This document shows, piece by piece, positions 11,390 to 60,753 of a stretch of DNA of 64,000 nucleotides; positions within the stretch are counted from its first letter, which is position 1; the number at the start of each line of letters is the position of its first letter. Source of the stretch: Candidatus Micrarchaeota archaeon (GTDB lineage: Archaea > Micrarchaeota > Micrarchaeia > Micrarchaeales > CABMGC01); NCBI GenBank assembly GCA_021797995.1, contig JAJZYR010000003.1:8798-72797 (forward strand), written 5' to 3'. Under the pieces are notes generated by a model that worked only from the letters and a program-made list of their open reading frames with translations, was not told the DNA's origin and did not search any database. A program made the translations under genes and the position numbers.

Positions 11390-11574
11390 CAGCGTAAGCG
11401 GGAAACCGCGTCCTGTCCATTGGCGGGGGTAGGTCATGAGCCAAGACCAACGCGCACAGCACCACAATATTTTAATATGTGTACATCCTATCCTTATTCA
11501 TATCTTGCCAGCTAACTAAGTTGTCTGTCATCTTCTGGCAGGATCGTTTATCCAGGCTTCAAACGTGGCGCTGA

Positions 11575-15072: not shown

Positions 15073-15103
15073 TCCGGGCTGCAAAGCCGATTGCGGTGAC
15101 CTG

Positions 15104-16243
15104 ATGAAGCTCCTGATACTGCAACCTTATCTGAACCTGATGGGCGGCGTGGACAGGGTGATCCTGAAGATAGCGCAGCATTACGATGCGAAGATCCTCA
15201 CGCTCGAATACGACAGGAAAACTGCCTTTCCCGAGTTCTCTGACCTTGATGTAGAGGTTGTTGGCCCCCGCCGCAGTTCCGGAATCCTTCCATACAGGGC
15301 CGGGCAGGGCTTCAGGTACGGCTACGCTTTCTACAGGATGCGGATAAAGGAGGACTATGACGTCTTGAATCCGCACATCTCGCCGAGCGAGTGGATAAGG
15401 CACAGGAACGAAAGGGTGCTGTGGTACTGCCATACCCCTCCGCGCGAGGTCTATGACCTCTATTCGACCAGAATGCAGGGAAGGTCTGCGCGGGAGAAGC
15501 TGCTCTATGCTGCCATGGCCAGAACCTACAAGTTCATCGCCGGAAGGGTGGTAAGGAAGATAGAGGGCATAGCGACAAACAGCAGCATAACGAACGAGAG
15601 GATAAAGCGCTACTTCGGAAGGCAGGCCGAGGTGATAAATCCTGGGATAGACTGCGGCAGGTTCAGCAACAGGGGCGACGGGCGCTTCTTCTTCTGCCCG
15701 TCAAGGATAGTGGCCAATAAGCGACAGGATTACGTGATAGACGCATACAAGCAGTTCGCCAGGAGGGCGAAGGGCAGGAAACACAGTCTGGTGATTGCCG
15801 GAACAGTATCGAAGGATCCCGAGCATGCCGCATACCTGGAAAGGCTGAAGAGGTCCGCGAAGGGGTTCGACATAAAGATAATGGAGAACGTAAGCGATGC
15901 CGCGATGCTGAGGATGTACTCGAGATGCAGCGCTGTGCTCTTCTCGGCGGTAGACGAGGACTTCGGTTTCATACCGCTGGAGGCGATGGCGAGCTCAAAG
16001 CCTGTGATCTCGGTGAACGAAGGAGGCCCAACGGAAACGGTCGCAGACTCGAAGACAGGATTCCTGGTAAACTCCCCTACGGAGATGTCGAGGCGCATGC
16101 AGTTTATCGCAGAGCACGGCGACCTTGCGGAGAGGATGGGCAGGAACGGGAGGAGAAGGGTGGAGCAGAGATACTCCTGGGCTGCCTTCTTCGAGAAGCT
16201 CGATCCGCTGCTCAGGAAGGTGGGAAGGTCCGGGAACAGGTAG
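15104..16243 (+). CDS. GT-B glycosyltransferase (GT4-like)
   Basis: 379-aa ORF with EDFGFIPLEAMASSKPVISVNEGGPTETV (E-x7-E region) typical of GT4/GT1 enzymes, directly downstream of aglB. Confidence 0.8.
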   Translation: MKLLILQPYLNLMGGVDRVILKIAQHYDAKILTLEYDRKTAFPEFSDLDVEVVGPRRSSGILPYRAGQGFRYGYAFYRMRIKEDYDVLNPHISPSEWIRHRNERVLWYCHTPPREVYDLYSTRMQGRSAREKLLYAAMARTYKFIAGRVVRKIEGIATNSSITNERIKRYFGRQAEVINPGIDCGRFSNRGDGRFFFCPSRIVANKRQDYVIDAYKQFARRAKGRKHSLVIAGTVSKDPEHAAYLERLKRSAKGFDIKIMENVSDAAMLRMYSRCSAVLFSAVDEDFGFIPLEAMASSKPVISVNEGGPTETVADSKTGFLVNSPTEMSRRMQFIAEHGDLAERMGRNGRRRVEQRYSWAAFFEKLDPLLRKVGRSGNR

Positions 16244-23701: not shown

Positions 23702-25786
23702 ATGGAAGGGAAAGATGAAGGTGACAGCACAGTAGAGGGAAAGGTGGTGGAGGACAGGTTCATCGACTTCTACCATACATATTATCCGGCCCAGCTCGAC
23801 GAGCTTTATGTAAGCTACCCTAAGAAGAGGAGCCTTGACCTTGATGTAAAGAACCTGGAGCGCTTCGACATCGAGCTGGCAAACGAGCTCATAGAGAAGC
23901 CAGACACTGTCATACCTAAGGCTAACGCTGCCCTCGCGAGGCTGAATCCCGACCCGAACCCAAAGCACCCGATACATGCAAGGTTCTTTGGGATAGACCT
24001 CCAGATGCCTATGATACAGGACGTGGGGTCGGAGTACATAGGAAAGCTCCTGACGCTGGACTGCCTTGTGGTGAAGCGGGCCGAGATAACGCCAAAGGTC
24101 GACATCGGGGTCTTCAAGTGCTCATTCTGCGCCACCGTCACAAAGGTCAAGCTCGACAACGAGATGCCGCCTGACATCTGTCCGCAGTGCAAAAGGAGGT
24201 CGCTCAAGCAGGTGAACAGCGAATCCGGATTCATAAACCTACAGAGGGTGGCTGTGCAGGACCCGCTGGAGAAACTCAAGGGCAGCACGCCAACCTGGCA
24301 GCTCGAGGTCTGGCTTGAGGACGACATGGTCAACACCGTGATTCCGGGGGACCGGGTGGACATAACCGGCATACTGAGGATCAGGCCAAGGAAGAGCTTC
24401 AAGGGCAAGGAGGAGCAGAAGGTGCTCTTTACAATGTTCTTCGATGCAATTTCAATACAGCAGAAGCAGAAGGAGTTTGCCGAGCTCGACATAAACTCCG
24501 AGGAGGAGAAGCAGATAAGGGAGATTGCCACTGACCCCCATGTCTTCGACAAGATATCGAAGTCCATCGCTCCGTCTATATACGGATACGATGAGATCAA
24601 GCAGGCTCTTGCCCTGCAGCTATTCGGAGGTACGCCTGGCAAGATGCTTGTCGACGGAGGAATGATAAGGAACGACATGCACGTGCTTCTTATCGGGGAT
24701 CCGGGAAGCGCGAAGACGAGGCTCCTGCAGGCCGTTGCGGCGATAGTGCCGAAGGGCATCTATGTAAGCGGAAAGTCCACCACCGCCGCCGGCCTTACGG
24801 CCACAGCGGAGCGCGACGACTTCGCCGAGGGGGGCTGGACGCTCAAGGCCGGTGCGCTGGTGCTGGGATCCGGAGGAATGGTTTCCATAGATGAATTCGA
24901 CAAGATAAGCGAGGAGGATAAGTCCTCGCTTCTCGAAGCCCTGGAGTCGCAGACGATAAGCGTGGCCAAGGCCGGGATAGTCGCAAAGTTCAGTGCAAAG
25001 ACGTCGATTCTCGCCGCGGCAAACCCGAAGTTCGGGAGGTTCGACAGGACCATGCTGCTGGCAGAGCAGTTCGAGATACCTCCTGCGCTTCTCTCAAGGT
25101 TTGACCTCATCTTCCCTATTACCGACGTCATAGACGAGGAGCGCGACAAGCAGATAGCGCAGCACATCCTTATACAGCACAGTGCCGCCGGAGCCAAGCT
25201 CTCCCAGATGGTCGACTATCAGCAGGTAAGTGCGTCTCCGATAGAGTCGTCGCTGCTCAGGAAGTATGTTGCATATGCAAGGAAGAACGTAAAGCCAAGG
25301 CTCACCACAGAGTCAGCAAAGAGGATAGAGAGCTACTATCTGGAGCTCAGGAGGATAGGGATGAAGCAGGGCGCGACGCCGATAACGCCAAGGCAGATAG
25401 AGGGCCTGATAAGGCTCGCGGAGGCGAGCGCGAAGACGAGGCTGTCCGCAACCATCGAGACAAGGGACGCGGAGCTGGGCATCTCGCTCTTCGAGTACAT
25501 GCTTACAACGCTCGGGGTCGACAAGGCCGGCAGGAAGGACATAGACATACTCACCACGGGCATATCGCGCGAGAAGGTCGACAAGATAACCAAGCTGCTC
25601 GGGATAATAACGAGGCTTGAGCAGGAGGAGGGAGGCGCGAAGATCGTAAGGATATTCCAGGAGGCGGAGAAGGAGGGCATAGACAGCACCACGGCAAAGC
25701 GTTACATAGACGAGCTCGACAAGAGGGGAGAGCTATACCATCCCCGCCCTGGCGTATACGAGAGGGTAAAGAGGGAGGAGGGATAG
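23702..25786 (+). CDS. mcm: MCM replicative helicase
   Basis: 694-aa ORF with zinc motif CSFCATV...CPQCKRR, Walker A LLIGDPGSAKTRLLQ, Walker B VSIDEFDK, arginine finger SRFDL and a C-terminal wHTH. Confidence 0.95.
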   Translation: MEGKDEGDSTVEGKVVEDRFIDFYHTYYPAQLDELYVSYPKKRSLDLDVKNLERFDIELANELIEKPDTVIPKANAALARLNPDPNPKHPIHARFFGIDLQMPMIQDVGSEYIGKLLTLDCLVVKRAEITPKVDIGVFKCSFCATVTKVKLDNEMPPDICPQCKRRSLKQVNSESGFINLQRVAVQDPLEKLKGSTPTWQLEVWLEDDMVNTVIPGDRVDITGILRIRPRKSFKGKEEQKVLFTMFFDAISIQQKQKEFAELDINSEEEKQIREIATDPHVFDKISKSIAPSIYGYDEIKQALALQLFGGTPGKMLVDGGMIRNDMHVLLIGDPGSAKTRLLQAVAAIVPKGIYVSGKSTTAAGLTATAERDDFAEGGWTLKAGALVLGSGGMVSIDEFDKISEEDKSSLLEALESQTISVAKAGIVAKFSAKTSILAAANPKFGRFDRTMLLAEQFEIPPALLSRFDLIFPITDVIDEERDKQIAQHILIQHSAAGAKLSQMVDYQQVSASPIESSLLRKYVAYARKNVKPRLTTESAKRIESYYLELRRIGMKQGATPITPRQIEGLIRLAEASAKTRLSATIETRDAELGISLFEYMLTTLGVDKAGRKDIDILTTGISREKVDKITKLLGIITRLEQEEGGAKIVRIFQEAEKEGIDSTTAKRYIDELDKRGELYHPRPGVYERVKREEG

Positions 25787-36152: not shown

Positions 36153-37052
36153 TTATCCGACGCCAGCTCTTTGCAATGCCTCTAGATACCCACCAATCTC
36201 GCCATGATTCCGTATATACACCTTCTCGTCGACTATCGACTCTGTGCTCTCCTTAAATACAAAGGCCGGCGACTCGCCTTTGAAGACAGCATAATGTGGT
36301 AGCCCAGGCGGCACAACCAGCACGTCTCCCTTGTCTACTATGGTCTTCTGCATCTTCCCATTGCGTGGGTAAAACATCGAAAGCTTGCCTTTTATTGGGA
36401 TAAATATCTCATAAAGCCAATTATGGTAGTGGAAGTCCTGCCTGGAGTTTGAGTTCGAGGCTGATATAAACTGGTTCTCTGGGCCGAGAATGACACTTTT
36501 GCCACGGCTGATCGAGGGCAACATGCCCCCTCCCTCTGTTATAACGCGTTCTCCCCGCGTATTTTTCGGTATCATCATCAGCATGGGGTCCTCACCTGCC
36601 AAATGCGTGCTTATGTCCTCTAAAGTAAAACCAACCGGAGAGGCAACCGACATCTTTCCATGCCTGGCGTCATATTTCATCTTCAGTACATATATCCTGG
36701 AGCTAGATCCTGCCTGGTCTACCGTAACGGTGGTATTAGGTGGCACAATCGCGCCATTTACCGAGTCTATGGATCCCTTGCCTCTTCCAACGGCGCTATA
36801 AGAGATATTGACCCTGCGGTCAGTAAGTATCGTGGCACTGGTATTCCCTTCCGTCTCCATGCGTACAGGTTCGGCAGTCCTGTAAAAGACGCTCAAGTCA
36901 ATGCCATGCAATGCGAAATGCCTGCAATCACCCTCCTCCCTTCTCAGCTTCTCCAGAAGTATCGGCTCAATCCCAGTGCCCCCTGTGTTGCCATTCATTC
37001 CCTCCGTTAGGGCGTACTTAATAACCCGCCCCCTTACTATGGGTATAGGCAT
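36153..37052 (-). CDS. cupin-domain protein, sugar-phosphate-isomerase-like C-terminal cupin
   Basis: C-terminal FHYHNWLYEIFIPIKGKLSMF...GDVLVVPPGLPHYAVF follows the H-x-H...E...PP..H metal-site layout of cupin-type phosphoglucose/phosphomannose isomerases. N-terminal half unknown. Confidence 0.5.
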   Translation of the reverse strand: MPIPIVRGRVIKYALTEGMNGNTGGTGIEPILLEKLRREEGDCRHFALHGIDLSVFYRTAEPVRMETEGNTSATILTDRRVNISYSAVGRGKGSIDSVNGAIVPPNTTVTVDQAGSSSRIYVLKMKYDARHGKMSVASPVGFTLEDISTHLAGEDPMLMMIPKNTRGERVITEGGGMLPSISRGKSVILGPENQFISASNSNSRQDFHYHNWLYEIFIPIKGKLSMFYPRNGKMQKTIVDKGDVLVVPPGLPHYAVFKGESPAFVFKESTESIVDEKVYIRNHGEIGGYLEALQRAGVG

Positions 37053-37193
37053 TGTAGCATCAAGCAGGCATCTGCATCAGAACATACCCATCAATCCTAT
37101 AAATACATTTGCTTATGCACCTGCCGTCCGCCATCTGTAACTTCGCTGCAAGCCAATGCGACGGCTTATGCCTTCAGCGGCAGTAATTCCATT

Positions 37194-39416
37194 TCAGTCG
37201 GCCTCCTGGCTATTCATCACGACTGCCATCCTTTCCCTTGCACGCCTGCTGATAAGCTCGCGGAACAGGGCCAACTCCCTCCTAGCGGTCTCGTCCCAGC
37301 TAAATGACCTTGCATTATCTATCGCATTTCTTGATAGCATTGACCATGTCCTCCTGTCAGTAATAACCCTCATGATCGCTTTCTCTATCTGTTTCCTGTC
37401 AGTGGGTTCTATGAGCAGCCCGTTGACATTATCCTTTATTATCTCCCCGGGGCCGCCGTGCCTGGTCGCTATTACCGGCAGTCCGCAAGCGCTCGCCTCA
37501 AGCACTGTAAGTCCGAATGGCTCTATAAGCGCCGGGTTTACAAAGACACCACGGCTTTCGGCAGCAAGGCGATACAGGGCGCCCAGTCCTTCCTTGGAGT
37601 CTATAAACCTGACAAATGACACCGAACCGGCAGAGCGTGTCGCCTCGACAGTCCTTTTCAAGCCTTCATATACTGCCCTCTGGCCCTCATCCTGCTTATT
37701 CCTCATACCGGTAACGATAACCAGATTCGCCGCCTTCTTAAGCCCCGGGCTCCTGCAGAACGCGTCTGCCAGCGCGCCCAGGTTCTTTCCCTTCTCCAGC
37801 CTTGATACGGCAAGGATAATTGGCTTTCCTACCTCGTTTAGCCCCTTTGATATGGTCTTCAGCACATCTGTATGCGCGGGCTCATGCGCGCCTGGCGGAT
37901 GGAATATGCGAAGGTCTATGCCTGGAGGTATCACGTGGAATTTCCTCCTGTCTATTGCGTATCCTGAGTATTGGTTCTCCAGCTCATCATGCGTGCTGAC
38001 TATTACGGCATCGGCCTTGTCGATCGCCGACTGTTCTGCGGCAATCCTCCTTGAAAAATTAAACTTCCTGTCCATATCGGAATAGGTATCCCTGTCGACG
38101 CCTAGCCTTTGCATCTTCGGTATCCCAAGGGAATGGCCCGTAAAGGTCAGCACCGCGTCTGTCCTCTCAGAGAGGACCACTCCGGCAAGCCCCGCGTCAG
38201 CATAATTTGCATGTATTATATCAGGCGGCATCCCCTCGGTATTGATATATTCCATGACATTCTCTACATACTCGCCAATGTAAGGCCACAACCTCGTCTT
38301 TTTAATGTACCCCCTGCCTCCGCAGTTTATCCTCACTATCTTAAACTTCCTGTTGATATACTCCATGTACTTCCCATAAACGGGGTACATGGGATCCCTA
38401 ATCCTGCGCGTTATCAAGTCCACCTGCACCACCCCCGGAAGCCTGGAAAGCGCCTTGGCAAGCTCGACCACATATACGACCTGTCCTCCGGTATCCTCAT
38501 CCCTTCCAAGATCCGTATACTTCCCGTCAACAAGCCCGTGCATAGAATGTATCTGTATTACCAGTCCTGTGTTCTTATTCTTGGAGAAGATCCTAAAATG
38601 CAGTGCGCCTTCAAGCACCCCGCATACATCGTTTCCGCTGCAGCATCCATACCTGCCTTTTGAGAGATAAAGGGTAGGAAACGTGGACTTCTTCCTTGTC
38701 TTTCTTAAGATCGTGTGCTTAAGCTGGCTCTCTGCGTTGTTCACCACTATGGTATTTATATTGCTTGTAAGCATGTCGATGTCGTTTCCGCTGTCTCCTG
38801 CAAATATCGTATCATGGCTCCTTATCCCAAGCCTCTTTCTAAGCGTCTCCACGGCCCTTCTCTTCGACGCGCCCCTCGGGAGTATGTCCATCAGCATACG
38901 GTCTTCCTTCCCTTTGCTTAGGATAACGGTGTACCGGACTTTCATCTTGTCTAGTCTGTGATGGAGCTCCTCAAGGGCCTGCCCCTTTCGCGATACAGAG
39001 AGGTAGAAACTGCATTTGAATTCGGACTGTACGCCTTCCCCCTGCTTCTTCACCCCCCTTATCGCGCTCACGGATCTTAATAGGGCATCAGAGGTCCCTG
39101 AAGGCCAGATATTCCTGAGGAACGCATGCAGCGTCCTGTCTTCCGCCCACCTTCCCCCTCTGCCCCTAGAGTATATCTTTGTTCCAACATCTGTTATCAG
39201 GTAGTCGGGTTCGGGCAGCTGATAATCCCTGATGGCTTCCAGCGTCAGTTCAAGGTTCCTTCCGGTGACGTAGCAGCTCCGCACCCATTGGCTCTTCTTA
39301 AGCAAGTCTTTCAGGTGCCCGAGGCACTTCCGGTCCGGCATGCCGTAAAATGGAAACATCGTGCCGTCGAGGTCCGAGCAGAACAGCCTGTAGCTATTAC
39401 TGCCATAGTTTCCCAT
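37194..39416 (-). CDS. fusion protein: N-terminal HAD phosphatase (sucrose-phosphate-phosphatase-like) plus C-terminal sucrose-phosphate-synthase-like GT-B glycosyltransferase
   Basis: 740 aa. HAD motifs DLDGT, VTGR and GDSGNDIDML are followed by the SPS-type signature LGRDEDTGGQVVYVVELAKAL and EPFGLTVLEASACGLPVIATRHGGPGEII. Confidence 0.75.
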   Translation of the reverse strand: MGNYGSNSYRLFCSDLDGTMFPFYGMPDRKCLGHLKDLLKKSQWVRSCYVTGRNLELTLEAIRDYQLPEPDYLITDVGTKIYSRGRGGRWAEDRTLHAFLRNIWPSGTSDALLRSVSAIRGVKKQGEGVQSEFKCSFYLSVSRKGQALEELHHRLDKMKVRYTVILSKGKEDRMLMDILPRGASKRRAVETLRKRLGIRSHDTIFAGDSGNDIDMLTSNINTIVVNNAESQLKHTILRKTRKKSTFPTLYLSKGRYGCCSGNDVCGVLEGALHFRIFSKNKNTGLVIQIHSMHGLVDGKYTDLGRDEDTGGQVVYVVELAKALSRLPGVVQVDLITRRIRDPMYPVYGKYMEYINRKFKIVRINCGGRGYIKKTRLWPYIGEYVENVMEYINTEGMPPDIIHANYADAGLAGVVLSERTDAVLTFTGHSLGIPKMQRLGVDRDTYSDMDRKFNFSRRIAAEQSAIDKADAVIVSTHDELENQYSGYAIDRRKFHVIPPGIDLRIFHPPGAHEPAHTDVLKTISKGLNEVGKPIILAVSRLEKGKNLGALADAFCRSPGLKKAANLVIVTGMRNKQDEGQRAVYEGLKRTVEATRSAGSVSFVRFIDSKEGLGALYRLAAESRGVFVNPALIEPFGLTVLEASACGLPVIATRHGGPGEIIKDNVNGLLIEPTDRKQIEKAIMRVITDRRTWSMLSRNAIDNARSFSWDETARRELALFRELISRRARERMAVVMNSQEAD

Positions 39417-39529
39417 CCGATCCCCGCTACTATTCTCTGCAAAAGTATATTATTCCTTTCGGAGGAAATAAAGGCGCCACCCTGCACATGCTGCCGCCGA
39501 ACTGGACAAAAGGCTATTAAGCCTGCGCC

Positions 39530-49345: not shown

Positions 49346-50442
49346 TGAGCGCAAATAGCATAGGCAGCATTTTCAAGGTAATGAGCTTTGGAGAGAGCCA
49401 CGGCAGATGCGTAGGCGTTGTCATAGACGGATGCCCCGCCGGACTTAAGCTCGACATGGTGCTTATACAAAAAGACCTTGACAGAAGGAGGACAGGGCAG
49501 AACCCCGAACTCTCATCGGTGAGGAAGGAAGAGGACAAGGTGGAGATCCTGTCAGGGGTCTTCAATGGAGTTACCACAGGAGCCCCCGTGTGCATGCTTG
49601 TATGGAACAAAGATACTATCTCAGAAGCATATGAGCAGAGGAGGTACACTCCAAGGCCGGGCCATGCCGACTTCACCGGCTTTGTCAAGTATGGCGGTTT
49701 TGAGGACTATCGCGGCGGGGGAAGATTCTCTGCAAGAAACACGGCCGGTTTTGTCATAGCTGGAACGATTGCAAAACAGCTGCTGGAGCGGTTGAATATA
49801 GAAGTGCTCGCGCATACGACAAGCATAGGGAAGGTAAGCGCCGGCAAGGCCAGCATCGAGGACATACGTGCAAACGTTCCCAAGAACGGGGTGGGATGCG
49901 CGGATCCTGATGCCGCAGACAAGATGGCCGAGGCAATATCCAAGGCCAAGAAGGGCGGCGACAGCCTGGGGGGCACGATAGAAGGGATCGCAATAAACCT
50001 TCCGGTCGGGTTGGGTGAGCCTATATTCGAAAACCTTGACGGAGAGCTCTCAAAAGCGCTCTTTGCCATCCCGGCAGTCAAGGCAGTGGAATTCGGGTCC
50101 GGATTCAAAGGATCAACGGCATTCGGCTCAGAGAACAACGACGAATTCATGCTCAATGGCGGGAAGGTGGTCACAAGGACAAACAACTCCGGAGGCATAC
50201 TTGGCGGAATATCGGACGGCATGCCAATCGTAGTAAAAATAGGGTTCAAACCGATAGCCTCGATACCAAAAAAGCAGACGACTGTCAACCTGAAGGATAT
50301 GAAAGAGGTGGAGATATCATCCATGGGCAGATTTGATCCGTGCCCGATTCCAAGGGCAATTCCAATAGTAGAGGGAATGATGGCAATCGTACTCTGCGAC
50401 TTTGCACTCAGGTCGCATCTCATTCCTCCGGTGTTAAAATGA
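49342..50442 (+). CDS. aroC: chorismate synthase
   Basis: 366-aa ORF with FGESHG, RPGHAD, GGGRFSAR and GRFDPC motifs. Confidence 0.93.
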   Translation: MMSANSIGSIFKVMSFGESHGRCVGVVIDGCPAGLKLDMVLIQKDLDRRRTGQNPELSSVRKEEDKVEILSGVFNGVTTGAPVCMLVWNKDTISEAYEQRRYTPRPGHADFTGFVKYGGFEDYRGGGRFSARNTAGFVIAGTIAKQLLERLNIEVLAHTTSIGKVSAGKASIEDIRANVPKNGVGCADPDAADKMAEAISKAKKGGDSLGGTIEGIAINLPVGLGEPIFENLDGELSKALFAIPAVKAVEFGSGFKGSTAFGSENNDEFMLNGGKVVTRTNNSGGILGGISDGMPIVVKIGFKPIASIPKKQTTVNLKDMKEVEISSMGRFDPCPIPRAIPIVEGMMAIVLCDFALRSHLIPPVLK

Positions 50443-50732
50443 ACGACCCCAAGAAAACATTAGAAGACAGCAGAAAGAGCATAGACGCGATAACGCGCGA
50501 AATGGTTAGGCTTATCCGCAAAAGGGATCTTGTAGTAAGGAAGGTAATCGAGGCAAAGCGCCAGTTGGGCATCCCGGCCCTAAATGCAGTGAGAGAGAAG
50601 GCGCTCATACGCAAAGCGCGAGATATGGCAGAAAAGGCAGGAGTAGACCCGCTACTCATGGAAAAGATAACAAGACTCATAATAGATAACAGCAGGAAAT
50701 ACGAGGAATCCTCACTAAAAAAGGCAAGATAG
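50439..50732 (+). CDS. chorismate mutase, AroQ class (monofunctional)
   Basis: 97-aa helical ORF (LEDSRKSIDAITREMVRLIRKRDLVVRKVIEAKRQLGIP..REKALI). The ATG overlaps the aroC stop (ATGA). The track ORF start at 50340 is over-extended. Confidence 0.8.
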   Translation: MNDPKKTLEDSRKSIDAITREMVRLIRKRDLVVRKVIEAKRQLGIPALNAVREKALIRKARDMAEKAGVDPLLMEKITRLIIDNSRKYEESSLKKAR

Positions 50733-50739
50733 CAGATGT

Positions 50740-50751
50740 TCCCATCGGGAT
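50740..50751. repeat. 12-bp direct repeat TCCCATCGGGAT, identical to the 3' end of tRNA-Glu (52252-52263); candidate att site
   Basis: Exact 12-mer 8 nt after the chorismate mutase stop. The second copy covers the T-stem/acceptor 3' strand of the tRNA-Glu gene. An AT-rich segment lies between the copies. Confidence 0.55.
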
Positions 50752-50887
50752 GTAACATTCAAGTTAAATGCCCACCATGTACCGCCATACTTGCTTAGAA
50801 TCTACAGCTTGAACACTCTTTTTTGACCAGTTTTATCCTGGGATATGTGCCTTTGTTGTTATTTGCTCTATGTTTCTCATGTTATAA

Positions 50888-52162
50888 CTATTTTTTGATC
50901 TGCTCGGTCTCAAGAAGCCATCTCCAGGCAGGTTTTACTTCTATTTTCTTGCCATCGTATTGCAATTCTTGCTCTTGCTCTAACGTAATTATAAAATACT
51001 CCTTTGCCTTTATTCTTTCTACAGCCTTAAGCAAACCTCCTGCTTCTCTCTCTGTATTCCCTGCGTTTAATTCATAGCACACCTGAATCACGGTCTTATC
51101 ATGGGGGATTACAAAATCTGCTTCGCGACCATTTTCATCCTTGTAGTAATAAAACTCTTTTCCAAGTCTTTTCAGATGTACTGCGATTGTGTTCTCTAGA
51201 ATTGCCCCTTTATGTTCAAGTACAGAAGGGGAGTTTTTAACTAATATTCCGCTGTCTATGCAGTATACTTTCCTAGGATTCTTATCTATCATCTTTAGCT
51301 TTCGTTCGAATTTCCTGATTTCAAATAATAGGTACGTCTCTGCTACATAGGACATGTACTTCTCCACAGTTACAGAACTCTTTATCCCGAAGTTTCCAGC
51401 AACTGAACGGTAAGTTATCATATTTGATGCATTTGCAATAAGGAAACGTACGACAGATTTCAATTCGATTGGCTTTCTTATGCTATACCTCGTAAGTATG
51501 TCCTTTCTTACGATGTCATCGACAATTTCTGTCAAGATGCGCTCATTTGACAACACTACAGATTCAGGCATTCCTCCCTTCAGAAGATATTCTTTGAAAA
51601 GTCCAGACAACAAAGCGACCTGGGTGGTCGAATATAAACCCTTCTTTATCACTTCAGGATTCTTAGCTGACAAAAACTCCAAAAACGAGAAGGGGTATAG
51701 CTCAATATCCGTATGTCTGCCGGTCATATGAGTGCCAAGTTCTTTGCTTAGCAGGTTGGCATTTGAACCGGTAATAAATATCGCATACCCCTGCCGCATC
51801 AATCGGTTGACGAAGAGCTCCCAGCCTCTTACATTTTGGATCTCATCAAAGAATGCCTTTTTCTTGTCTCCAAGCATCTCTATTAAGGTTTCCATTACCG
51901 AACGAAGATCATCGGTTGTGAGATCCGAAAGTAGTTCGTCATCAAAGTTGAAGTATAAGAAATCGTCATTGAATTTGGTACGCATTAGCTGCATTAAGAG
52001 CGTGCTTTTGCCGCAGCGGCGGACACCTTTTATTACAAAAGCAGAGGAGCCGCTATAGCTAAGAACCTCATGAAAGACCGTTCTTGGGACAGTATGCTTA
52101 AGGTTCTTGATCTCTTTTAACTGGTCTTCTATGACACTGCGTAAAAGCGGCTTAGTTATCAT
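50888..52162 (-). CDS. AAA+ ATPase (COG1373-like, AAA domain plus DUF4143-like C-terminal domain)
   Basis: 424-aa ORF with Walker A GVRRCGKSTLL, Walker B AFFDEIQ and a C-terminal restriction-endonuclease-like region. Visibly AT-richer than its neighbours. Confidence 0.7.
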   Translation of the reverse strand: MITKPLLRSVIEDQLKEIKNLKHTVPRTVFHEVLSYSGSSAFVIKGVRRCGKSTLLMQLMRTKFNDDFLYFNFDDELLSDLTTDDLRSVMETLIEMLGDKKKAFFDEIQNVRGWELFVNRLMRQGYAIFITGSNANLLSKELGTHMTGRHTDIELYPFSFLEFLSAKNPEVIKKGLYSTTQVALLSGLFKEYLLKGGMPESVVLSNERILTEIVDDIVRKDILTRYSIRKPIELKSVVRFLIANASNMITYRSVAGNFGIKSSVTVEKYMSYVAETYLLFEIRKFERKLKMIDKNPRKVYCIDSGILVKNSPSVLEHKGAILENTIAVHLKRLGKEFYYYKDENGREADFVIPHDKTVIQVCYELNAGNTEREAGGLLKAVERIKAKEYFIITLEQEQELQYDGKKIEVKPAWRWLLETEQIKK

Positions 52163-52228
52163 TGCTGAGTATATGAACGGACATGTATTTAAATCATGTG
52201 TTTTATAATAAACAAAAACATCGATTAT

Positions 52229-52246
52229 TGCTTATTATAATAAGCA
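52229..52246. terminator. perfect 18-bp palindrome TGCTTATTATAATAAGCA followed (minus strand) by a T-rich run, immediately 3' of tRNA-Glu
   Basis: Verified as its own reverse complement. The minus strand continues ...GATGTTTTTGTTTATTATAAAA. May serve as tRNA terminator and/or a recombinase site. Confidence 0.4.
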
Positions 52247-52249
52247 TTT

Positions 52250-52323
52250 GCTCCCATCGGGATTTGAACCCGAGTTGCGGGGTTGAAAGCCCCACGTCCT
52301 TGGCCGGACTAGACGATAGGAGC
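52250..52323 (-). tRNA. tRNA-Glu (anticodon UUC)
   Basis: Minus strand: GCTCCTA TC GTCT AGTCCGGCCAA GGAC G TGGGG CTTTCAA CCCCG CAAC TCGGG TTCAAAT CCCGA TGGGAGC, discriminator A. Canonical cloverleaf, 74 nt, no CCA. Confidence 0.9.
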
Positions 52324-52395
52324 AACACCTTATTATTCTATGTCATGCTTTATTAATACTGTTTGCAAAATACCATTTGCATTTCTGGCTGAAGC

Positions 52396-53034
52396 ATGCC
52401 CGGTATGATAATATCGATAACTGGAATAGACCTTGCAGGCAAGCATACGCAGTCAGAGCTTCTTGCTGGCAAGCTCCGCAAATACGGATACCGTGTGTCT
52501 TCCTATTCGTACCCTGACTACAATTCGGTGTACGGAAGAATAATCCGCGACTATCTTGAAAAGAAAATAACAATGGGCACAGGTGAGCTGTTTCTTGTCT
52601 TTCTTGCCGACATGATGAAGGACAAGGAAAGGATAGAACGCGAGATAAGCACTGGCAGCGTGATAATAACGGACAGGTATTTCGTCGATACGATTGCATA
52701 TCAATCGGCAGGCGGGCTTGACTGCGCGATGCTTAAGGCTGTGGAAGACGCGATGGGCCTGCCAAAACCGGGGATGGTGATATATATCGACATACCGGCC
52801 TCAGTTGCCACGGAAAGGAAGGCCACGCATGGAGGCAGGCCCGATAAATACGAAGAAGATGCCGCATACCTGGAAAAGGCAAGGAGAGCGTATGAAGAGC
52901 TATTTGAGGAACGTTACACAGGGGCAGAATGGATAAAGATCGATGGGACTGATGGCATAGATAACATTCATCATAGGATATCAGAGCATGCAGTAAGGTT
53001 GCTGGAAGCAAAGAAGGTGCCGCAAGCGATTTAA
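52396..53034 (+). CDS. tmk: thymidylate kinase
   Basis: 212-aa ORF with ISITGIDLAGKHTQ P-loop, DRY motif (ITDRYFVDT) and a lid region. Confidence 0.85.
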   Translation: MPGMIISITGIDLAGKHTQSELLAGKLRKYGYRVSSYSYPDYNSVYGRIIRDYLEKKITMGTGELFLVFLADMMKDKERIEREISTGSVIITDRYFVDTIAYQSAGGLDCAMLKAVEDAMGLPKPGMVIYIDIPASVATERKATHGGRPDKYEEDAAYLEKARRAYEELFEERYTGAEWIKIDGTDGIDNIHHRISEHAVRLLEAKKVPQAI

Positions 53035-53080
53035 CAACGTGAGCGGGAAATCCCACACCCTCTTCAGAGGGTTCCCTTTA

Positions 53081-54340
53081 GACCGACATAATTGATTTCT
53101 CCTCCTAGCACCTGACGCCGCAACAAGTCAGATAATGTTGCGGCGTGATGTATAAACAGGTGCAAACATGGAAATAGCAATAGACCTCGGAAAGTGGAAG
53201 AGTTACGTTGTCATGGAAGACAACGGCAAGATTGTAAAAGAAGGATACACGGGGACGACAAAAGAGGAGTTCTTCGCATTCTTCGGACAAGTAAATAATC
53301 CGAAGATAATAGTTGAGGCCAGTAGTACTGTAAACAGGATTGCGAATATTTTTGAAGGATATGACCTTACCGTAGCCCATCCTGCAAAAGTCAAACTGAT
53401 TGCACAGTTGGTAAAGAAGACAGACAAAGTTGATACGCATACGATAATGGATCTGTACAAAAAGGACTATCTTCCGAAGTCTTATCTGCCGTCAAAGGAG
53501 ATAAGGGATATGAGAGACATCTGCAGAGAGAGGTCTTTTCTGGTAGGGCAGAGAACCGCAATCAAGAACAAGATACGTTACCAGTCATATTGCCTCGGAA
53601 TAGAGTTCAAAACATGGACAAAAAGAAACATAAAAATGCTGAAGGAAGAACCAAAACTGAGGCTCCTGATGACACAACTTGAGTCTATTACTCATACAAT
53701 AACCAAATATGAACGTATGATAAAAGACGCGGCAGTAGAAGACGCCAATGCAAGGCTGATAGACACAATACCTGGAATCGGAAAAGTAAGTGCATTGATC
53801 ATTGCATCTGAAATAGGGGATGTAAATCGTTTCCCATCAGAGGAAAACATCTTCGCATACACGGGATTGGTGCCAAGAATATACCAGTCTGGCAATAAGG
53901 AATGGAAGGGCCACATTACAAAAGGCAATGGCTTCCTGAAGTGGACGTTAGTAGAATGTGTAGGGATACACATAATGAACTCTACAGATTCGCCTATAAC
54001 TGCAGCCTATGAACGCATACGAGAAAGAAGAGGAAACAAAAAGGCAAAGATTGCAGCTGCAAGACATATGCTGCGGGCAATCTATTATATGCTCAAACGG
54101 AATCAGAATTTTGATTCCTATTTGGGAGGCAGGAGGATGCGTTGATCCCACCGTGTTGCGATGCAACGTGCTTTAGACTAACGCCCTCCTGCCCTAATGA
54201 AAGTCAGAATATCGCACTGCGATGAATAGTAGAGCATTATGAAAGTATTAAAAGATGAATGGTGATAAATGATTAACCGAGAATATTATTCTGGCCTTGC
54301 GGCTCTTGCCGCTAGGTCGGAGAAATCAATATAGTAGCGG
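53081..54340 (+). mobile_element. IS110-family insertion sequence (IS1111-like layout); boundaries approximate
   Basis: DEDD-type transposase flanked by imperfect inverted repeats: ATTGATTTCTCCtcCTAGC (53091-53109) and GCTAGgtcGGAGAAATCAAT (54311-54330). The 12-mer and 6-mer blocks are exact. The interior is AT-richer than the flanks and interrupts tmk/dcd. Confidence 0.7.
53168..54145 (+). CDS. IS110-family transposase/recombinase (DEDD N-terminal domain plus Tnp_20 C-terminal domain)
   Basis: 325-aa ORF with N-terminal IAIDLGK, C-terminal LIDTIPGIGKVSALIIASEIGDVNRF and YQSGN (Ser nucleophile context). Confidence 0.88.
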   Translation: MEIAIDLGKWKSYVVMEDNGKIVKEGYTGTTKEEFFAFFGQVNNPKIIVEASSTVNRIANIFEGYDLTVAHPAKVKLIAQLVKKTDKVDTHTIMDLYKKDYLPKSYLPSKEIRDMRDICRERSFLVGQRTAIKNKIRYQSYCLGIEFKTWTKRNIKMLKEEPKLRLLMTQLESITHTITKYERMIKDAAVEDANARLIDTIPGIGKVSALIIASEIGDVNRFPSEENIFAYTGLVPRIYQSGNKEWKGHITKGNGFLKWTLVECVGIHIMNSTDSPITAAYERIRERRGNKKAKIAAARHMLRAIYYMLKRNQNFDSYLGGRRMR

Positions 54341-55652: not shown

Positions 55653-57293
55653 TCACCCATGCACGCCGGTCTTCCCGTCCAGCTCGGCAAGCTTTCTGTC
55701 TATCCTCCTCTCGCTGTCGAGCCTTGCGAGAGCGTAGTCGTTCATATCTACCTGCATGAATTCGGCAAGCACGGGATGCACCTTCTCTATCATCCTCTTC
55801 ATGTTCTGCGCTATCTTCCTATAGTCCGGGTGCCCCTGCTTCGTGGACCTTAGCTCAGCCAGGTGGTATACCTCCCTGAGATTCATCTTCATGTACCAGC
55901 GCATGTGGTAGGAGCGCGGGACTACGTACTGCGCCTCGATAGGCATTTCCACAGCAATCTCCCTGTGGACTTCGGCAACTTCCTCCATCAGCCTTGCGTA
56001 TTCTCTGTCCAAGCCCAGCGCCACAAGCTCCTCTGGCACATCGTATCCAAGCGACGTCCCGAGCACCTGGCGCTCGAGTGTAAGCATCCTGTGCCTGTGC
56101 AAGTCCCTGAATATTCCGTAGTTGGCGCACAGCTCGAACGTGTAGTATGCGCTTTCAAGTGCCCTGCCAGGCTTGTCCCTCCTGTTCCTCCTGTTTGAGA
56201 GATAAGCTTTCACAAGCTCTTTCCTCTGTTCTGGCGCCATCGCCACGACTGCGCCCCGCAGGCTGTTCAAGTCAAGGTTTGAATAAGGGTACAGCATCGA
56301 TGCCAGCACCTTCGCCTCCGCATCCCTGTCATAGTCAACAAGCTCAAGGTAAGGCCCCGCCCTGCCGCCAGCGCCCCCCTGCTTCATGTTCCGCGAGTAA
56401 AAGCCGCCCATTGTCTCCCTCGTCTTTGTTATGTATTCGGAGAGCTGGGATCTCTTGACAAAAGACGGGATTACCAGGGAGAGCTCCGCATGGAGCCTTC
56501 CGGCGAGGTCAACGCCCTCGGCAAGGTTGGACGAATAAAGCCGCGTCAGCAGGTACTCATACGCGCGCCCGTTGCCGAACAAGCCTATATTAGTGAGCCT
56601 CCCTGCGGTAAGCAGGTTCTTCAGCACGTCGCATGCCTTTGCGCGCATTGCATTCTCATAAGCCCTTTCGGTGGTATCGCCGCTTCTCGGGTTATTCTCC
56701 TTTGCATAGGAGATGACGACAGGCAGCCATCTGCTGTACTCGTCAAAAAGCAGGTCCATGGTCCTTTCATACGCATCCCCAAACCTTGATTCCATGAGCT
56801 TCGGGGACCTGAACCAGAGATACTTTCCGTCTACCTTCTTATCAAAAGGTATGTACCTTGCCGACTTCTCCAGGTACGAGAAGCCGATTCTCGAGTCGGT
56901 GATGAGGTCGGCTGCGAGGCTCGATATATTCTCGCAGGCCGCATGCGATCCTGCAAGTTCAGCAACTGAATCATCACCGTATCCGACGAGCACCCGCTGG
57001 TAAAAGTCCTCGGCCCGGCCTATTGCAAGGTTCGCCTCGATCCCCTTCGAGGGCATGTTGCCCTCAATCGCCTCCATTACCTCCTTATTGGGGATGAATT
57101 CATCAAGCAGGAGGCGGCGGGCGCTCTTCTCCGACCTGCTGTACCTCGAAAAGAGGGTGCCCTTTACGACTTCAGGCATGTTGATTAGGGCGAAGACATG
57201 CCTGTCCACATTTGTAAAAAAGGGTCTGACAAGTTCCTTCTCCCTCTCGTCAAGGCCTATCGGGAAGGTATAGCTGCCAGGCATAGGAAACAA
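55653..57293 (-). CDS. thyX: FAD-dependent thymidylate synthase ThyX, double-length form
   Basis: 546 aa. A ThyX signature (FRDLHRHRMLTLERQ, i.e. RHRxxT) sits in the C-terminal half, and a ThyX-like helical region lies in the N-terminal half. Confidence 0.75.
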   Translation of the reverse strand: MFPMPGSYTFPIGLDEREKELVRPFFTNVDRHVFALINMPEVVKGTLFSRYSRSEKSARRLLLDEFIPNKEVMEAIEGNMPSKGIEANLAIGRAEDFYQRVLVGYGDDSVAELAGSHAACENISSLAADLITDSRIGFSYLEKSARYIPFDKKVDGKYLWFRSPKLMESRFGDAYERTMDLLFDEYSRWLPVVISYAKENNPRSGDTTERAYENAMRAKACDVLKNLLTAGRLTNIGLFGNGRAYEYLLTRLYSSNLAEGVDLAGRLHAELSLVIPSFVKRSQLSEYITKTRETMGGFYSRNMKQGGAGGRAGPYLELVDYDRDAEAKVLASMLYPYSNLDLNSLRGAVVAMAPEQRKELVKAYLSNRRNRRDKPGRALESAYYTFELCANYGIFRDLHRHRMLTLERQVLGTSLGYDVPEELVALGLDREYARLMEEVAEVHREIAVEMPIEAQYVVPRSYHMRWYMKMNLREVYHLAELRSTKQGHPDYRKIAQNMKRMIEKVHPVLAEFMQVDMNDYALARLDSERRIDRKLAELDGKTGVHG

Positions 57294-57991: not shown

Positions 57992-58267
57992 TTAGAAATC
58001 GCCCTTGTCAAGATAAGACCAATAATCGCGAAGTCGGCTTCGGAGTTGCTCAGAAACATAAAACACATCGGGAGGCCTGTTGAGATATCTATCGTAGATA
58101 AAGTGCTGATGTTGCTGATGAAGGACATATTCAGTCTCAGCAATAGAAGAACTGCAGGTTTTTATCCGTCTTGAAGCCGATTTCGAAGATAAAGACAACC
58201 TACAAAACGGTGGAAAGGCTCTACTCTGATCAGTAGTTTCTATCGTTATACACAACATGTTTACCAT
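57992..58267 (-). CDS. hypothetical protein (91 aa) inside the insertion
   Basis: ORF only, with no recognisable motif and low GC. Confidence 0.35.
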   Translation of the reverse strand: MVNMLCITIETTDQSRAFPPFCRLSLSSKSASRRIKTCSSSIAETEYVLHQQHQHFIYDRYLNRPPDVFYVSEQLRSRLRDYWSYLDKGDF

Positions 58268-58389
58268 AATGATACGGAAGAAGGGACTGCGCGGCGAACA
58301 TTATGCGAGGGCACGCCATAAGTACTTTAAGAAGGATATAGACTCATTACTTTTGGATGTTGGATTAAGTGCCTTAGATGCATAAGCTT

Positions 58390-58926
58390 TCATCTTGTCG
58401 TATTTATTGTCAAACCAGCTATAGATTGGTAATATACTATGCTATTTCCAGCGACGCTATAAGATACCCAAATAGTTCCTTCCACATTAGTTCCTTCCAC
58501 ATGGTTTTGAGGGTTGCTTTTCAAGGTTACTCTCACACCATTTGGATTACCAGGTTGTAATTCACCAATAGATGTTACATTGATGCCACTTGCAAAGGAA
58601 GCAGGGCATAAACATTGTTGAGAGTAGTTGTTGTCGTTTATCGAAACGAATGCAACTTTAACATTAGTCCAATTAACATTAGTCCAACTCGCTCCAAGAT
58701 CTTGCATACCCCAATTTAGTGTTATGTCTCCTGTAGAAGCTGAATAACTTATATTTGAGCATACAAAACCAGCATTAGGAAGACATTGACTACTTACAGC
58801 GCTCGGCACACCAAGCAGATTAGATACAGATTTGGGAAGAGATAAATCTCCAAGGAATACCAATACTGCAAGAATAATAACCATAATTACTAAGATTGCA
58901 CCTCCTATTACTCGCATGCCTACCAT
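58390..58926 (-). CDS. pilin-like secreted protein, paralogue of 28509-29057
   Basis: N-terminal hydrophobic helix MRVIGGAILVIMVIILAVLVFLG. It shares C-x-P-x-A-x-F-x-C...G-x-[IL]-[ST]-L...Q-D-x-G-A and a C-terminal IW-x-x-Y block with the chromosomal pilin-like protein. Confidence 0.6.
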   Translation of the reverse strand: MVGMRVIGGAILVIMVIILAVLVFLGDLSLPKSVSNLLGVPSAVSSQCLPNAGFVCSNISYSASTGDITLNWGMQDLGASWTNVNWTNVKVAFVSINDNNYSQQCLCPASFASGINVTSIGELQPGNPNGVRVTLKSNPQNHVEGTNVEGTIWVSYSVAGNSIVYYQSIAGLTINTTR

Positions 58927-58986
58927 AAAATCTGCTAAACATATCTCCTGAGATATTTATTAAAGTGTTACTTCCTATACATAGTT

Positions 58987-59490
58987 ATGACGGAGCAACA
59001 ATCAACATCAAATAGTAACAAATTTTATATTCTGTTAATAGCAGGAGTGATTGTATTACTAATCGGTGTATTTGTAATGGGCTCAGATAGCTGCTTATTT
59101 ACTGGTGAAAACCCGTTTTGTAATATTCTTGGCGTAGACCCAATCCAGCTTGGATTTGTAGTGGCGTTGATTGGAACACTTATATTTTTATTATCGATAG
59201 CCAAGATATGTCTTTCACTATACCAAAACTCACAGATTAAAAATCTGTATTATATTTTACTCACAAGCATAATAGCCTTAATAGTTGGTGAAACGTTGAT
59301 ACTAATGTCAGGTTTCTCTAATACAGAAAGTGATACCCAATTGCTTGTGGCTAATCTCTTTAATATAAATGCGATAACTTCATCTTTTGAAATATATGTA
59401 GAGGGCTACGCATTTATTATAATTGGTGTGTTAGGCTTCGTTGTATCTATCATCTCTGTTTTTCTATATAAGAGAGCTGGAAAAACTTAA
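58987..59490 (+). CDS. small integral membrane protein (about 4 TM helices) inside the insertion
   Basis: 167-aa ORF with four long hydrophobic stretches, divergent from the pilin-like gene across a 60-bp AT-rich spacer. Confidence 0.5.
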   Translation: MTEQQSTSNSNKFYILLIAGVIVLLIGVFVMGSDSCLFTGENPFCNILGVDPIQLGFVVALIGTLIFLLSIAKICLSLYQNSQIKNLYYILLTSIIALIVGETLILMSGFSNTESDTQLLVANLFNINAITSSFEIYVEGYAFIIIGVLGFVVSIISVFLYKRAGKT

Positions 59491-59539
59491 TAGGGTTTCA
59501 CTTTTTAAACAAATTTTAGACTTTTTAAACAAAAGCCGC

Positions 59540-59555
59540 TTATTTAACAAAGCCC
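59540..59555. repeat. right terminal inverted repeat TTATTTAACAAAGCCC
   Basis: Exact reverse complement of 57878-57893. Followed by AATAGCG (59556-59562), and AATAGCGG recurs at 59568-59575. Confidence 0.8.
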
Positions 59556-59577
59556 AATAGCGGCCATAATAGCGGAA

Positions 59578-60753
59578 CTATGGCTGGAGCCAGTCAATCT
59601 CGTAATATTCCTGCCTGCTGTGCGGCAGCCTTATCTGCCTTATACGATAGTAAGTTACCGCCGTTTCCCTGTCCATTATGGCAAGGAGAAGGTCGAGTCT
59701 GCTCTCCCTCGCCCTCCTCAGCGCCCCTGCAAACTCCCTGCCCCCTATATACTCCTCCTCGCTGAGCGAGAGCATCGCGAAACGCGGAGGACCGCTATCA
59801 GGAGACTCCGCGTCTCCCCCCTTTCTATGGTACAGTATGTAGTCGAACCCAACATCGCGTTCGTCAGGGTCCCCAGGCACGGCAAGTATGAAGGTCTTCC
59901 GCACGGAATGCGCAACTCTTATCGCCCTGGCCCATTCGGATATCAGCAGCTTGGACTCCTTCGGGAAGACGTGTATGACGTGTTTCGAGTGGATCCAGCC
60001 TGTGCTCTCGCTCTTGAACGGCCTGGCTCCAGGGAAATAAACCCTGAAGTGGGTCCCAAACTTGAAGCCGGTCTTTATGACATAACCCTTCTCCCTCCAG
60101 TCCTTGTAGACCTGATAGAGCCTCGGGAAATCCCTCCTGCGCGCCGCAGCGTGTCTTTCAAGCTCCTTTACGGTTATGTTGTCCAGCACGAGCATTCCGT
60201 GGTCGATGAGAAACAAGGTTTCATAGACGTCGAGCTTGTTCAGCCTACCCCTCTCCGGGGCCTTGTAGGAGCCGTACTGCCCAAACCACAGCCTGTCATA
60301 GATGTCCCTGCCATGCTCGGCATCATCGATTATCGTAAGCAAGTCCGTCTTGAAGAAGACTCCGTGAAGCTTATAGTCGGGAAGCTTAAGCGAGGACACA
60401 GGGTACTCCTTTACCTGCATCCTGCCCGGCTCCGCATAGCTCGAGTCCGGGCTCTTTATAACCAGTCCGCGATCCCTCCAGTCCTTGTACGTAAAGTACC
60501 TCGACGTGAACTTTCCGGATTTCCAGAATGCCGATGCAATGTCGTTGAACGCTACCGGCTTCCCATTTGCAGTGCACTCGGCGTTCCTTACGTCCATGAG
60601 ATAAAGCGCCTCCTCGATCCCCAGGTAGAGTATGCCGTCGACCATGTTCCCGATATGGCCGCCCTTGAGCTGGTCTATTGTGGACTGGTCGTCGGAAATG
60701 ACCTCTTTTTTCGAGATAAGCTTCAGGTGCAGCATGCCATCATTTGCGCACAT
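59578..60753 (-). CDS. endA: tRNA-splicing endonuclease, three-unit single-chain form
   Basis: 391 aa. Central catalytic unit YKDWREKGYVIKTGFKFGTHFRVY...HSKHVIHV...AHSVRKTFILAV (Y/H/K triad context). An N-terminal degenerate copy (YKDWRDRGLVIKS) and an extra C-terminal about 90-aa unit are also present. Confidence 0.85.
   Translation of the reverse strand: MCANDGMLHLKLISKKEVISDDQSTIDQLKGGHIGNMVDGILYLGIEEALYLMDVRNAECTANGKPVAFNDIASAFWKSGKFTSRYFTYKDWRDRGLVIKSPDSSYAEPGRMQVKEYPVSSLKLPDYKLHGVFFKTDLLTIIDDAEHGRDIYDRLWFGQYGSYKAPERGRLNKLDVYETLFLIDHGMLVLDNITVKELERHAAARRRDFPRLYQVYKDWREKGYVIKTGFKFGTHFRVYFPGARPFKSESTGWIHSKHVIHVFPKESKLLISEWARAIRVAHSVRKTFILAVPGDPDERDVGFDYILYHRKGGDAESPDSGPPRFAMLSLSEEEYIGGREFAGALRRARESRLDLLLAIMDRETAVTYYRIRQIRLPHSRQEYYEIDWLQP

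Follow-up and report, generated by a model that had tools for sequence, protein, structure and literature searches.

Discussions of sucrose synthesis usually centre on cyanobacteria, plants and some proteobacteria. Two architectures of sucrose-phosphate synthase (SPS), and those two alone, were distinguished in a 2015 review: a single glycosyltransferase domain (GTD), and a GTD followed by a phosphatase-type domain (GTD-PHD) (PMC4390843). The single-domain SPS of H. orenii (PDB 2r60, 2r66 and 2r68) has no fused phosphatase, while the bidomain SPS of Synechococcus elongatus PCC 7942 and many proteobacteria carries an SPS glycosyltransferase (GT) domain and a catalytically intact S6PP-type HAD domain in one chain (PMC4390843). 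The sucrose-phosphate phosphatase (SPP) of Synechocystis sp. PCC 6803 (1s2o) is a stand-alone protein of 244 aa, and Synechocystis SPS has a PHD that is not functional (PMC4390843). Here we analyze a 740-aa gene that likewise joins an S6PP-type HAD domain to an SPS-type GT domain, with the HAD domain first, encoded in a 64,000-nucleotide stretch of archaeal contig JAJZYR010000003.1 (hereafter the window). Our preferred reading, to which we give a probability of roughly 0.68, is a bifunctional sucrose-phosphate phosphatase/synthase of permuted domain order (SPP-SPS) that would produce sucrose and would have originated by loss of a stop codon.

Two predicted catalytic domains in one open reading frame

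The gene and its parts, in window coordinates, are as follows.

37194..39416 (−): putative SPP-SPS fusion gene, 740 aa (HAD-IIB phosphatase, linker, GT-B synthase), from the open reading frame (ORF), Pfam/NCBIfam and the AlphaFold2 (AF2) model
38592..39389 (−): S6PP (HAD-IIB) phosphatase domain, residues 10–275, with D15, D17, T51, K185, D208 and D212, from PF05116, SPP alignment and Foldseek
38562..38591 (−): interdomain linker of ∼10 residues (RIFSKNKNTG), from comparison with the junctions of the unfused loci L025 and L064
37269..38561 (−): SPS-type GT-B (GT4) domain, residues 286–716, from TIGR02472, phmmer and Foldseek
Within the GT domain: key residues GGQ310-312, Y405, H428-S429, K434, R456-R457, R539, K544 and E632-x7-E640, from alignment with 2r60
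39446..39454 (−): putative fusion-gene promoter, a TATA-like box AATAATATA, read from the sequence and inferred

The ORF contains the motifs SDLDGT, YVTGR, GDSGNDIDML and LGRDEDTGGQVVYVVELAKAL. A preliminary description of this DNA had proposed the fusion together with a cupin gene downstream, and both ORFs and every motif it cited were found where it placed them, on the minus strand and 141 bp apart. In a protein-cluster search the fusion protein was 100% identical to cluster representative P0001, and the same 740-aa protein recurs, identical, on at least 24 contigs (JGI, two NCBI assemblies, ENA and Logan). A frameshift or assembly artefact was ruled out as the source of the fusion, given identical proteins from many independent assemblies and orthologues in no fewer than 10 species. 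The TATA-like box lies ∼30 nt 5′ of the fusion ATG, inside a 113-bp divergent region common to the fusion gene and aroD, and is a putative promoter for a short-leader or leaderless mRNA. On the strand opposite the fusion gene, a 309-aa ORF (37156–38085, plus strand) is a shadow ORF, whose apparent conservation in other loci follows from conservation of the sense-strand gene.

The N-terminal domain matches Pfam S6PP (PF05116) at residues 10–275 with 161 bits (E 5e-47, cutoff 20.3), spanning positions 3–246 of the 247 in the profile. NCBIfam SPP models match the same region, and TIGR01484 (HAD-SF-IIB subfamily) passes its cutoff (62.8 vs 41.8). Its closest solved relative is Synechocystis SPP (1s2o; E 7e-19, ∼26% identity), from which it differs in being covalently joined to a synthase. 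Motifs I–IV are intact in this alignment and their key residues identical, D15/D17, T51, K185 and D208/D212 of the fusion pairing with D9/D11, T41, K163 and D186/D190 of SPP (SPP numbers counted off the alignment), and Foldseek superposes the AF2 model of the fusion on 1s2o with a TM score of 0.82. The complete HAD-IIB phosphatase of the preliminary description is thereby borne out, with an S6PP match of 161 bits and all four motifs kept. Compared with proteins of GT-HAD-HAD architecture, the query HAD scores 133–145 bits against the terminal HAD and 51–55 bits against the internal PHD; this far better fit to the terminal HAD points to a domain of true-SPP type.

A HAD domain that had become regulatory or structural would leave the protein an SPS only, and the inactive PHD of Synechocystis SPS is a precedent (PMC4390843) to which a score under the SPP equivalog cutoff (given below) could be added. 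We regard this as very improbable. Unlike that PHD, the fusion HAD keeps all of motifs I–IV; its catalytic residues match those of a solved, active SPP and, like those of the GT domain, are invariant across 14 HAD-GT proteins; and the domain would descend from a stand-alone spp gene, as discussed in the next section. No separate SPP gene was found either within the 64 kb of the window or flanking the orthologous loci, the search not having extended to whole genomes. Both active sites of the fusion protein are apparently intact.

In the C-terminal half, Pfam assigns Glyco_transf_4/GT-B_Sucrose_synth to residues 287–502 and Glycos_transf_1 to residues 526–698, so that the profiles bearing on the preliminary description (S6PP, GT-B_Sucrose_synth and Glycos_transf_1) all gave matches. 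The best NCBIfam score is that of the SPS GT-domain model TIGR02472 (423.8 bits), with the plant SPS, sucrose synthase and MshA models behind it. The closest solved relative is H. orenii SPS (HoSPS) 2r60 (phmmer E 9e-77), with which the catalytic and fructose-6-phosphate-site stretches align: G310-G311-Q312, Y405, S429, K434 and R456-R457 correspond to HoSPS G33-G34-Q35, Y128, S152, K157 and R179-R180. The GGQ loop, Tyr, GHS..K and RR stretch of HoSPS are reported to form its fructose-6-phosphate site (Chua et al. 2008). H428, R539/K544 and E632-x7-E640 also align with H. orenii SPS and, together with the acceptor-site stretch GHS..K..RR, are invariant in the 14 HAD-GT proteins. Experiment has assigned the catalytic set of T. 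elongatus SPS (TeSPS) to H158, E331, E339 and R249/R253, comprising a catalytic His and Glu, a ribose-binding Glu and basic residues for the nucleoside diphosphate (NDP) phosphate (PMC7264703); the fusion residues were mapped to TeSPS numbering through motif identity, not residue-level alignment.

The AF2 model, built from 14 HAD-GT sequences, is confident for both modules (mean pLDDT 87.8, pTM 0.84). Its first Foldseek match in this half is 2r60 (E 5.5e-37, 33% identity), followed by sucrose synthases, and target-normalized TM scores to 2r60 and 6kih (TeSPS) are 0.72–0.80, with TeSPS at 0.80; no solved structure found by Foldseek covers both modules. By profile, sequence and fold the domain groups with SPS and not with other GT4 enzymes, in agreement with the preliminary assignment.

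In the mechanism we propose, the GT-B domain would move glucose from NDP-glucose (UDP- or ADP-glucose) onto fructose-6-phosphate, giving sucrose-6F-phosphate, which the HAD-IIB domain would then dephosphorylate to sucrose. The predicted net reaction (NDP-glucose + fructose-6-phosphate → sucrose + NDP + Pi) is like that of bidomain SPS, from which the fusion differs in its N-terminal HAD, in a GT domain of the single-domain subfamily outside the canonical clade, and in what appears to be an independent fusion event.

Distribution and origin of the reversed order

The order in the fusion protein is HAD (10–275) and then GT (287–716), and not that of canonical bidomain SPS. When the best 120 protein clusters were typed with the query's two halves as separate probes, 99 were GT-HAD, 16 HAD-GT, three GT-HAD-HAD and one HAD-GT-HAD. 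An alignment spanning the junction was also run against 185,579 GTDB species genomes, and the ORFs and domains of the resulting loci were analyzed. Single-ORF HAD-GT fusions occurred in at least 11 species, 10 Micrarchaeota and one Gammaproteobacterium metagenome-assembled genome (MAG); these counts are a lower bound, because the scan relied on two GT motifs. The inverted order noted in the preliminary description is therefore confirmed, and it is uncommon by both measures. The scan also showed other arrangements. In Iainarchaeum, several Desulfobulbia and an unclassified archaeon, spp and sps abut as two genes, spp first; in Woesearchaeota the gene order is the reverse, sps-spp; and in Verrucomicrobiota canonical GT-HAD genes diverge from a gene for SPP alone. 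Our literature search found no description of a PHD-GTD form, nor of sucrose or SPS in Marsarchaeota, Micrarchaeota or DPANN. PHD-GTD thus appears to be a third, permuted SPS architecture beside GTD and GTD-PHD, concentrated in DPANN Micrarchaeota.

The unfused operons of Iainarchaeum and Desulfobulbia (loci L025, L026, L028, L029 and L064) have the same order and the same SPS subfamily as the fusion, and the ends of their products align with its linker, but they consist of two genes with a stop codon between them, which would represent a pre-fusion or a post-fission state. At the Iainarchaeum junction (L025, 2060–2075) the sequence reads ...KHFLGVA-TAA-ATG-GLYIQIHSMHG in one frame, and at the Desulfobulbaceae junction (L064, 8787–8800) a TAA is followed by one codon and the ATG. 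Across the corresponding region the window protein reads ...LHFRIFSKNKNTGLVIQIHSMHG, its linker sitting where the unfused pairs have their stop/start junction. A single point mutation would be enough to fuse, or split, such in-frame spp and sps genes, and, given the same-order TAA-ATG junctions, the fusion has the form expected if an upstream spp lost its stop codon ahead of an abutting sps.

In a rough neighbour-joining tree of the GT domain, archaeal HAD-GT proteins form one clade and bacterial HAD-GT proteins (P0013, P0014, P0016 and P0018, which have bacterial genomic context) form another, among unfused single-domain genes. Both clades fall outside the canonical GT-HAD clade, among single-domain SPS, so the fusion would have occurred within the single-domain subfamily, independently of the GT-HAD fusion. 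The independent fusion proposed in the preliminary description thus stands, with abutting spp-sps genes as its source. The HAD-GT-HAD protein P0097 combines a canonical-type GT (650 bits) with an N-terminal true SPP (280 bits), and from this protein and the two HAD-GT clades we put the number of N-terminal SPP fusion events at two or three at least. Fusion of SPP to SPS appears to have occurred repeatedly, and at either end. Three-module relatives of ∼1000 aa were seen in both forms, HAD-GT-HAD (P0097) and GT-HAD-HAD (P0015, P0017 and P0036); in the latter, for example from Desulfuromonas, a true SPP is added after a PHD-like domain.

The source MAG is labelled 'Candidatus Marsarchaeota' at NCBI. 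The MCM encoded in the window (23702–25786) is 64–79% identical to many MCMs, almost all of them labelled Micrarchaeota, Micrarchaeia or Micrarchaeales, and the fusion protein nests within the Micrarchaeota clade of the neighbour-joining tree. The NCBI label looks wrong or inconsistent, and the simplest reading is an organism of the Micrarchaeota lineage with a vertically inherited fusion gene. A transfer from Micrarchaeota to 'Marsarchaeota', raised by the NCBI label, the tree and one shared gene at 31% identity, was overturned by the placement of the MCM in Micrarchaeota. The horizontal acquisition suggested in the preliminary description is likewise not supported, since the MCM places the organism in a lineage where the fusion is widespread. 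Micrarchaeota, which belong to DPANN, are small and live on other archaea. The preliminary description had also spoken of a reduced archaeal genome; the lineage is indeed DPANN, but the window holds complete aro/trp and other biosynthetic genes (trpA-G, aroD/E, EPSP and chorismate synthases, and acetolactate synthase), as well as an aconitase-family protein, tRNA synthetases and the MCM.

Gene neighbourhood and the identity of the product

The neighbours of the fusion gene vary by species, and two recur, an MscS mechanosensitive channel gene and a small DUF1059 gene. An MscS gene adjoins the sucrose genes in four species, the unfused Iainarchaeum among them (L016 11441–12334, L019 10253–11242, L021 6732–7826 and L025 334–1254), and in L011/L021 MscS is accompanied by a P-type cation ATPase and by Na+/H+ and Na+/Ca2+ exchangers. 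The recurrence of MscS fits a compatible-solute role, and these surroundings suggest an osmoregulatory gene neighbourhood. A DUF1059 gene (47–58 aa) lies beside the fusion in five Micrarchaeota species (L007 8391–8567, L012 8308–8451, L095 8353–8529, L018 5933–6094 and L022 7599–7760). Searches of the window for DUF1059 and MscS found neither. Following DUF1059, a ∼170-aa unannotated protein is encoded in L007 (8681–9199) and L095 (8632–9138), the two being 51–53% identical.

Several points weigh against a bifunctional SPP-SPS that makes sucrose. The HAD domain misses the cutoff of the SPP equivalog model TIGR01485 (111 vs 183.65 bits), and the GT domain, at 423.8 bits, misses the curated cutoff of TIGR02472 (576 bits). 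The GT-domain tree lacks support values. The role that we consider most likely for the product in Micrarchaeota, that of a compatible solute or stress protectant, is predicted from gene neighbourhood. Finally, the sequence alone would not separate glucose from mannose donors, because mannosylfructose-phosphate synthase (MFPS) is another member of this family and it, too, has an S6PP-type phosphatase as its partner. The synthase cutoff can be calibrated: canonical GT-HAD proteins score 593–666 bits against TIGR02472, whereas the tested proteins of single-domain, unfused or HAD-GT type all fall at 404–467 bits. The cutoff thus divides subfamilies, not SPS from non-SPS, and is tuned to the bidomain clade.

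The donor ambiguity leaves room for the same bifunctional architecture making another fructose disaccharide, for example mannosylfructose from GDP-mannose and fructose-6-phosphate, or using another acceptor. The Agrobacterium enzymes, MFPS (MfpsA) and mannosylfructose-phosphate phosphatase (MFPP; MfppA), are reportedly GT4/SPS-like and S6PP-like (Torres and Salerno 2007), and all domain matches of the fusion would be compatible with them. Both equivalog scores lie below their cutoffs, and the usual partner of the cupin family described below is a nucleotidyltransferase with a weak match to mannose-1-phosphate guanylyltransferase. The top sequence and fold matches, however, are bona fide SPS (H. 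orenii and T. elongatus) and SPP, and the sub-cutoff scores are common to the entire single-domain SPS lineage. MFPS is not known outside a narrow alpha-proteobacterial group, which we count against this alternative. Among plasmid records no annotated MFPS was found, all matches being canonical GT-HAD proteins named 'HAD-IIB family hydrolase'. Taken together, a product other than sucrose from this architecture seems to us quite unlikely, and we retain the SPP-SPS assignment.

The adjacent cupin gene and the remainder of the window

Downstream of the fusion gene the following features were recorded.

36153..37052 (−): 299-aa cupin gene, from the ORF and Pfam Cupin_1/Cupin_2
37053..37193 (−): 141-bp spacer between fusion and cupin genes, with a TTTATA box at 37098–37103, read from the sequence and inferred
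36255–36455 (−): cupin metal-binding core, residues 200–266, with H208, H210, E215 and H253, from conserved motifs

The preliminary description had taken the cupin protein for a sugar-phosphate isomerase and the two genes for a compact module. The protein has the motif layout FHYH...YE...VPPGLPH, and Pfam finds in it only the generic Cupin_1/Cupin_2 (residues 204–266). An exhaustive HMMER search of 1.84 billion proteins recovered 31 representatives of its family, all named members being from Micrarchaeota; a metagenome scan with a narrow cupin alignment returned one 1.2-kb contig. H208 and H253 are invariant and H210 and E215 present in at least 90% of 23 family members, in which family-specific motifs are also conserved, but a His/His/Glu/His site is generic to metallo-cupins and not diagnostic of phosphoglucose isomerase (PGI). 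The cupin-PGIs of Pyrococcus and Thermococcus (4luk, 1qxj and 1j3p) share the cupin fold and this metal site, whereas the window protein has an extra ∼190-aa N-terminal half, and RemF and oxalate decarboxylase score similarly to PGI. Against the PDB the family profile gives weak, generic matches of ∼55 residues each: RemF at 2e-4, Pyrococcus cupin-PGI at 1e-3 (cupin PGIs overall 1e-3 to 2e-2), and oxalate decarboxylase and quercetinase at ∼1e-2. Neither PF06560 (cupin-PGI) nor PF01050 (type II phosphomannose isomerase, PMI) matched any of the 23 members, the window protein included (E ≤ 0.01). One member carries the JGI name 'mannose-6-phosphate isomerase-like'. Structure prediction for the cupin protein, with one near-identical homologue as input, reached a mean pLDDT of 34.5.

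The cupin gene adjoins the fusion in the window's own population only (L001–L006). Beside orthologous fusions no cupin was found among called genes (L007–L013, L094 and L095), tblastn with the cupin gave no match at L007–L027, L094 and L095, and none of the four loci of the cupin family (L097–L100) contains an SPS. The TTTATA in the spacer is a consensus archaeal TATA box ∼48 nt 5′ of the cupin ATG, which makes an independent cupin promoter likely; with no oligo-T terminator in the spacer, read-through is possible.

At all four loci of the family (L097 4971–8405, L098 4025–6438, L099 4062–6425 and L100 4035–7370) the cupin stands between a divergent sugar-1-phosphate nucleotidyltransferase (∼285 aa) and a LigT-like CPDase. 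Two of the loci continue with a ROK glucokinase of Pyrobaculum type, and one has a PfkB kinase close by. The nucleotidyltransferase has weak matches that include mannose-1-phosphate guanylyltransferase. In L097 it bears an extra N-terminal segment of ∼45 residues that by eye has the look of a ribbon-helix-helix DNA-binding domain. Searches of the window for NTP_transferase, ROK, PfkB and CPDase found none, and the positive control worked. The pairing with a sugar-1-phosphate nucleotidyltransferase, and often with a glucokinase, makes a role in hexose-phosphate or NDP-hexose metabolism plausible for the cupin, sugar isomerase included.

These observations bear on whether the locus encodes a three-part module, in which the cupin would be a metal-dependent PGI/PMI-like isomerase, co-transcribed with the fusion and feeding it fructose-6-phosphate. 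Shared strand, the short spacer with no obvious terminator, conserved metal ligands, the profile match to Pyrococcus cupin-PGI at E ∼1e-3, the sugar-kinase and nucleotidyltransferase context elsewhere and the one isomerase-like name would agree with it. Against it stand the restriction of the adjacency to one population, the TATA box within the spacer, the lack of cupin-PGI/PMI Pfam matches with RemF ranked above PGI, and a length of 299 aa vs ∼190 aa for cupin PGIs, and we consider such a module improbable. The compact module of the preliminary description is accordingly not upheld, and of its isomerase assignment the sugar-metabolic context survives, while the family matches it would call for are missing or weak. 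The cupin is probably a lineage-specific neighbour with its own promoter, not a fixed component of the fusion.

Elsewhere in the window, a glycan-related cluster (10145–16243) comprises a catalytic domain like that of archaeal glycogen-debranching enzyme (10145–11389; PDB 7vma, E 1e-61), an ORF of 1165 aa with no match beyond a weak STT3/AglB-like one (11575–15072) and a GT4 glycosyltransferase (15104–16243). Two low-GC patches (50000–54200 and 58000–60000; GC 0.41–0.44 vs 0.52–0.57 elsewhere) contain an AAA_14/DUF4143 ATPase (50888–52162), a tRNA gene (52249–52323) and an IS110-family transposase (53168–54145), and may be a mobile element integrated at the tRNA. A ThyX (Thy1) ORF of 546 aa with a TTG start (55653–57293) has its Thy1 domain confined to residues 317–508, reflecting either a mis-set start or a long uncharacterized N-terminal extension.

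A wider joint reading, which we offer tentatively and doubt as a whole, would have Micrarchaeota make sucrose with a single permuted, rigidly packed polypeptide (pTM 0.84), possibly channelling sucrose-6-phosphate between its modules, with sucrose serving as an MscS-managed archaeal solute or a metabolite exchanged with the host, and with the cupin as a new hexose-phosphate isomerase feeding the pathway. As an SPP-SPS the fusion is rare and its enzymology would be as expected, so the advance is incremental unless channelling or a host-symbiont role is shown. Current annotation as 'HAD-IIB family hydrolase' conceals the predicted function, and a putative one-gene sucrose pathway from organisms associated with thermoacidophiles may be of use in engineering. 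The history of the fusion is legible in extant genomes, from abutting genes through an in-frame TAA-ATG junction to a fused ORF, and sucrose as an archaeal solute becomes a testable prediction.

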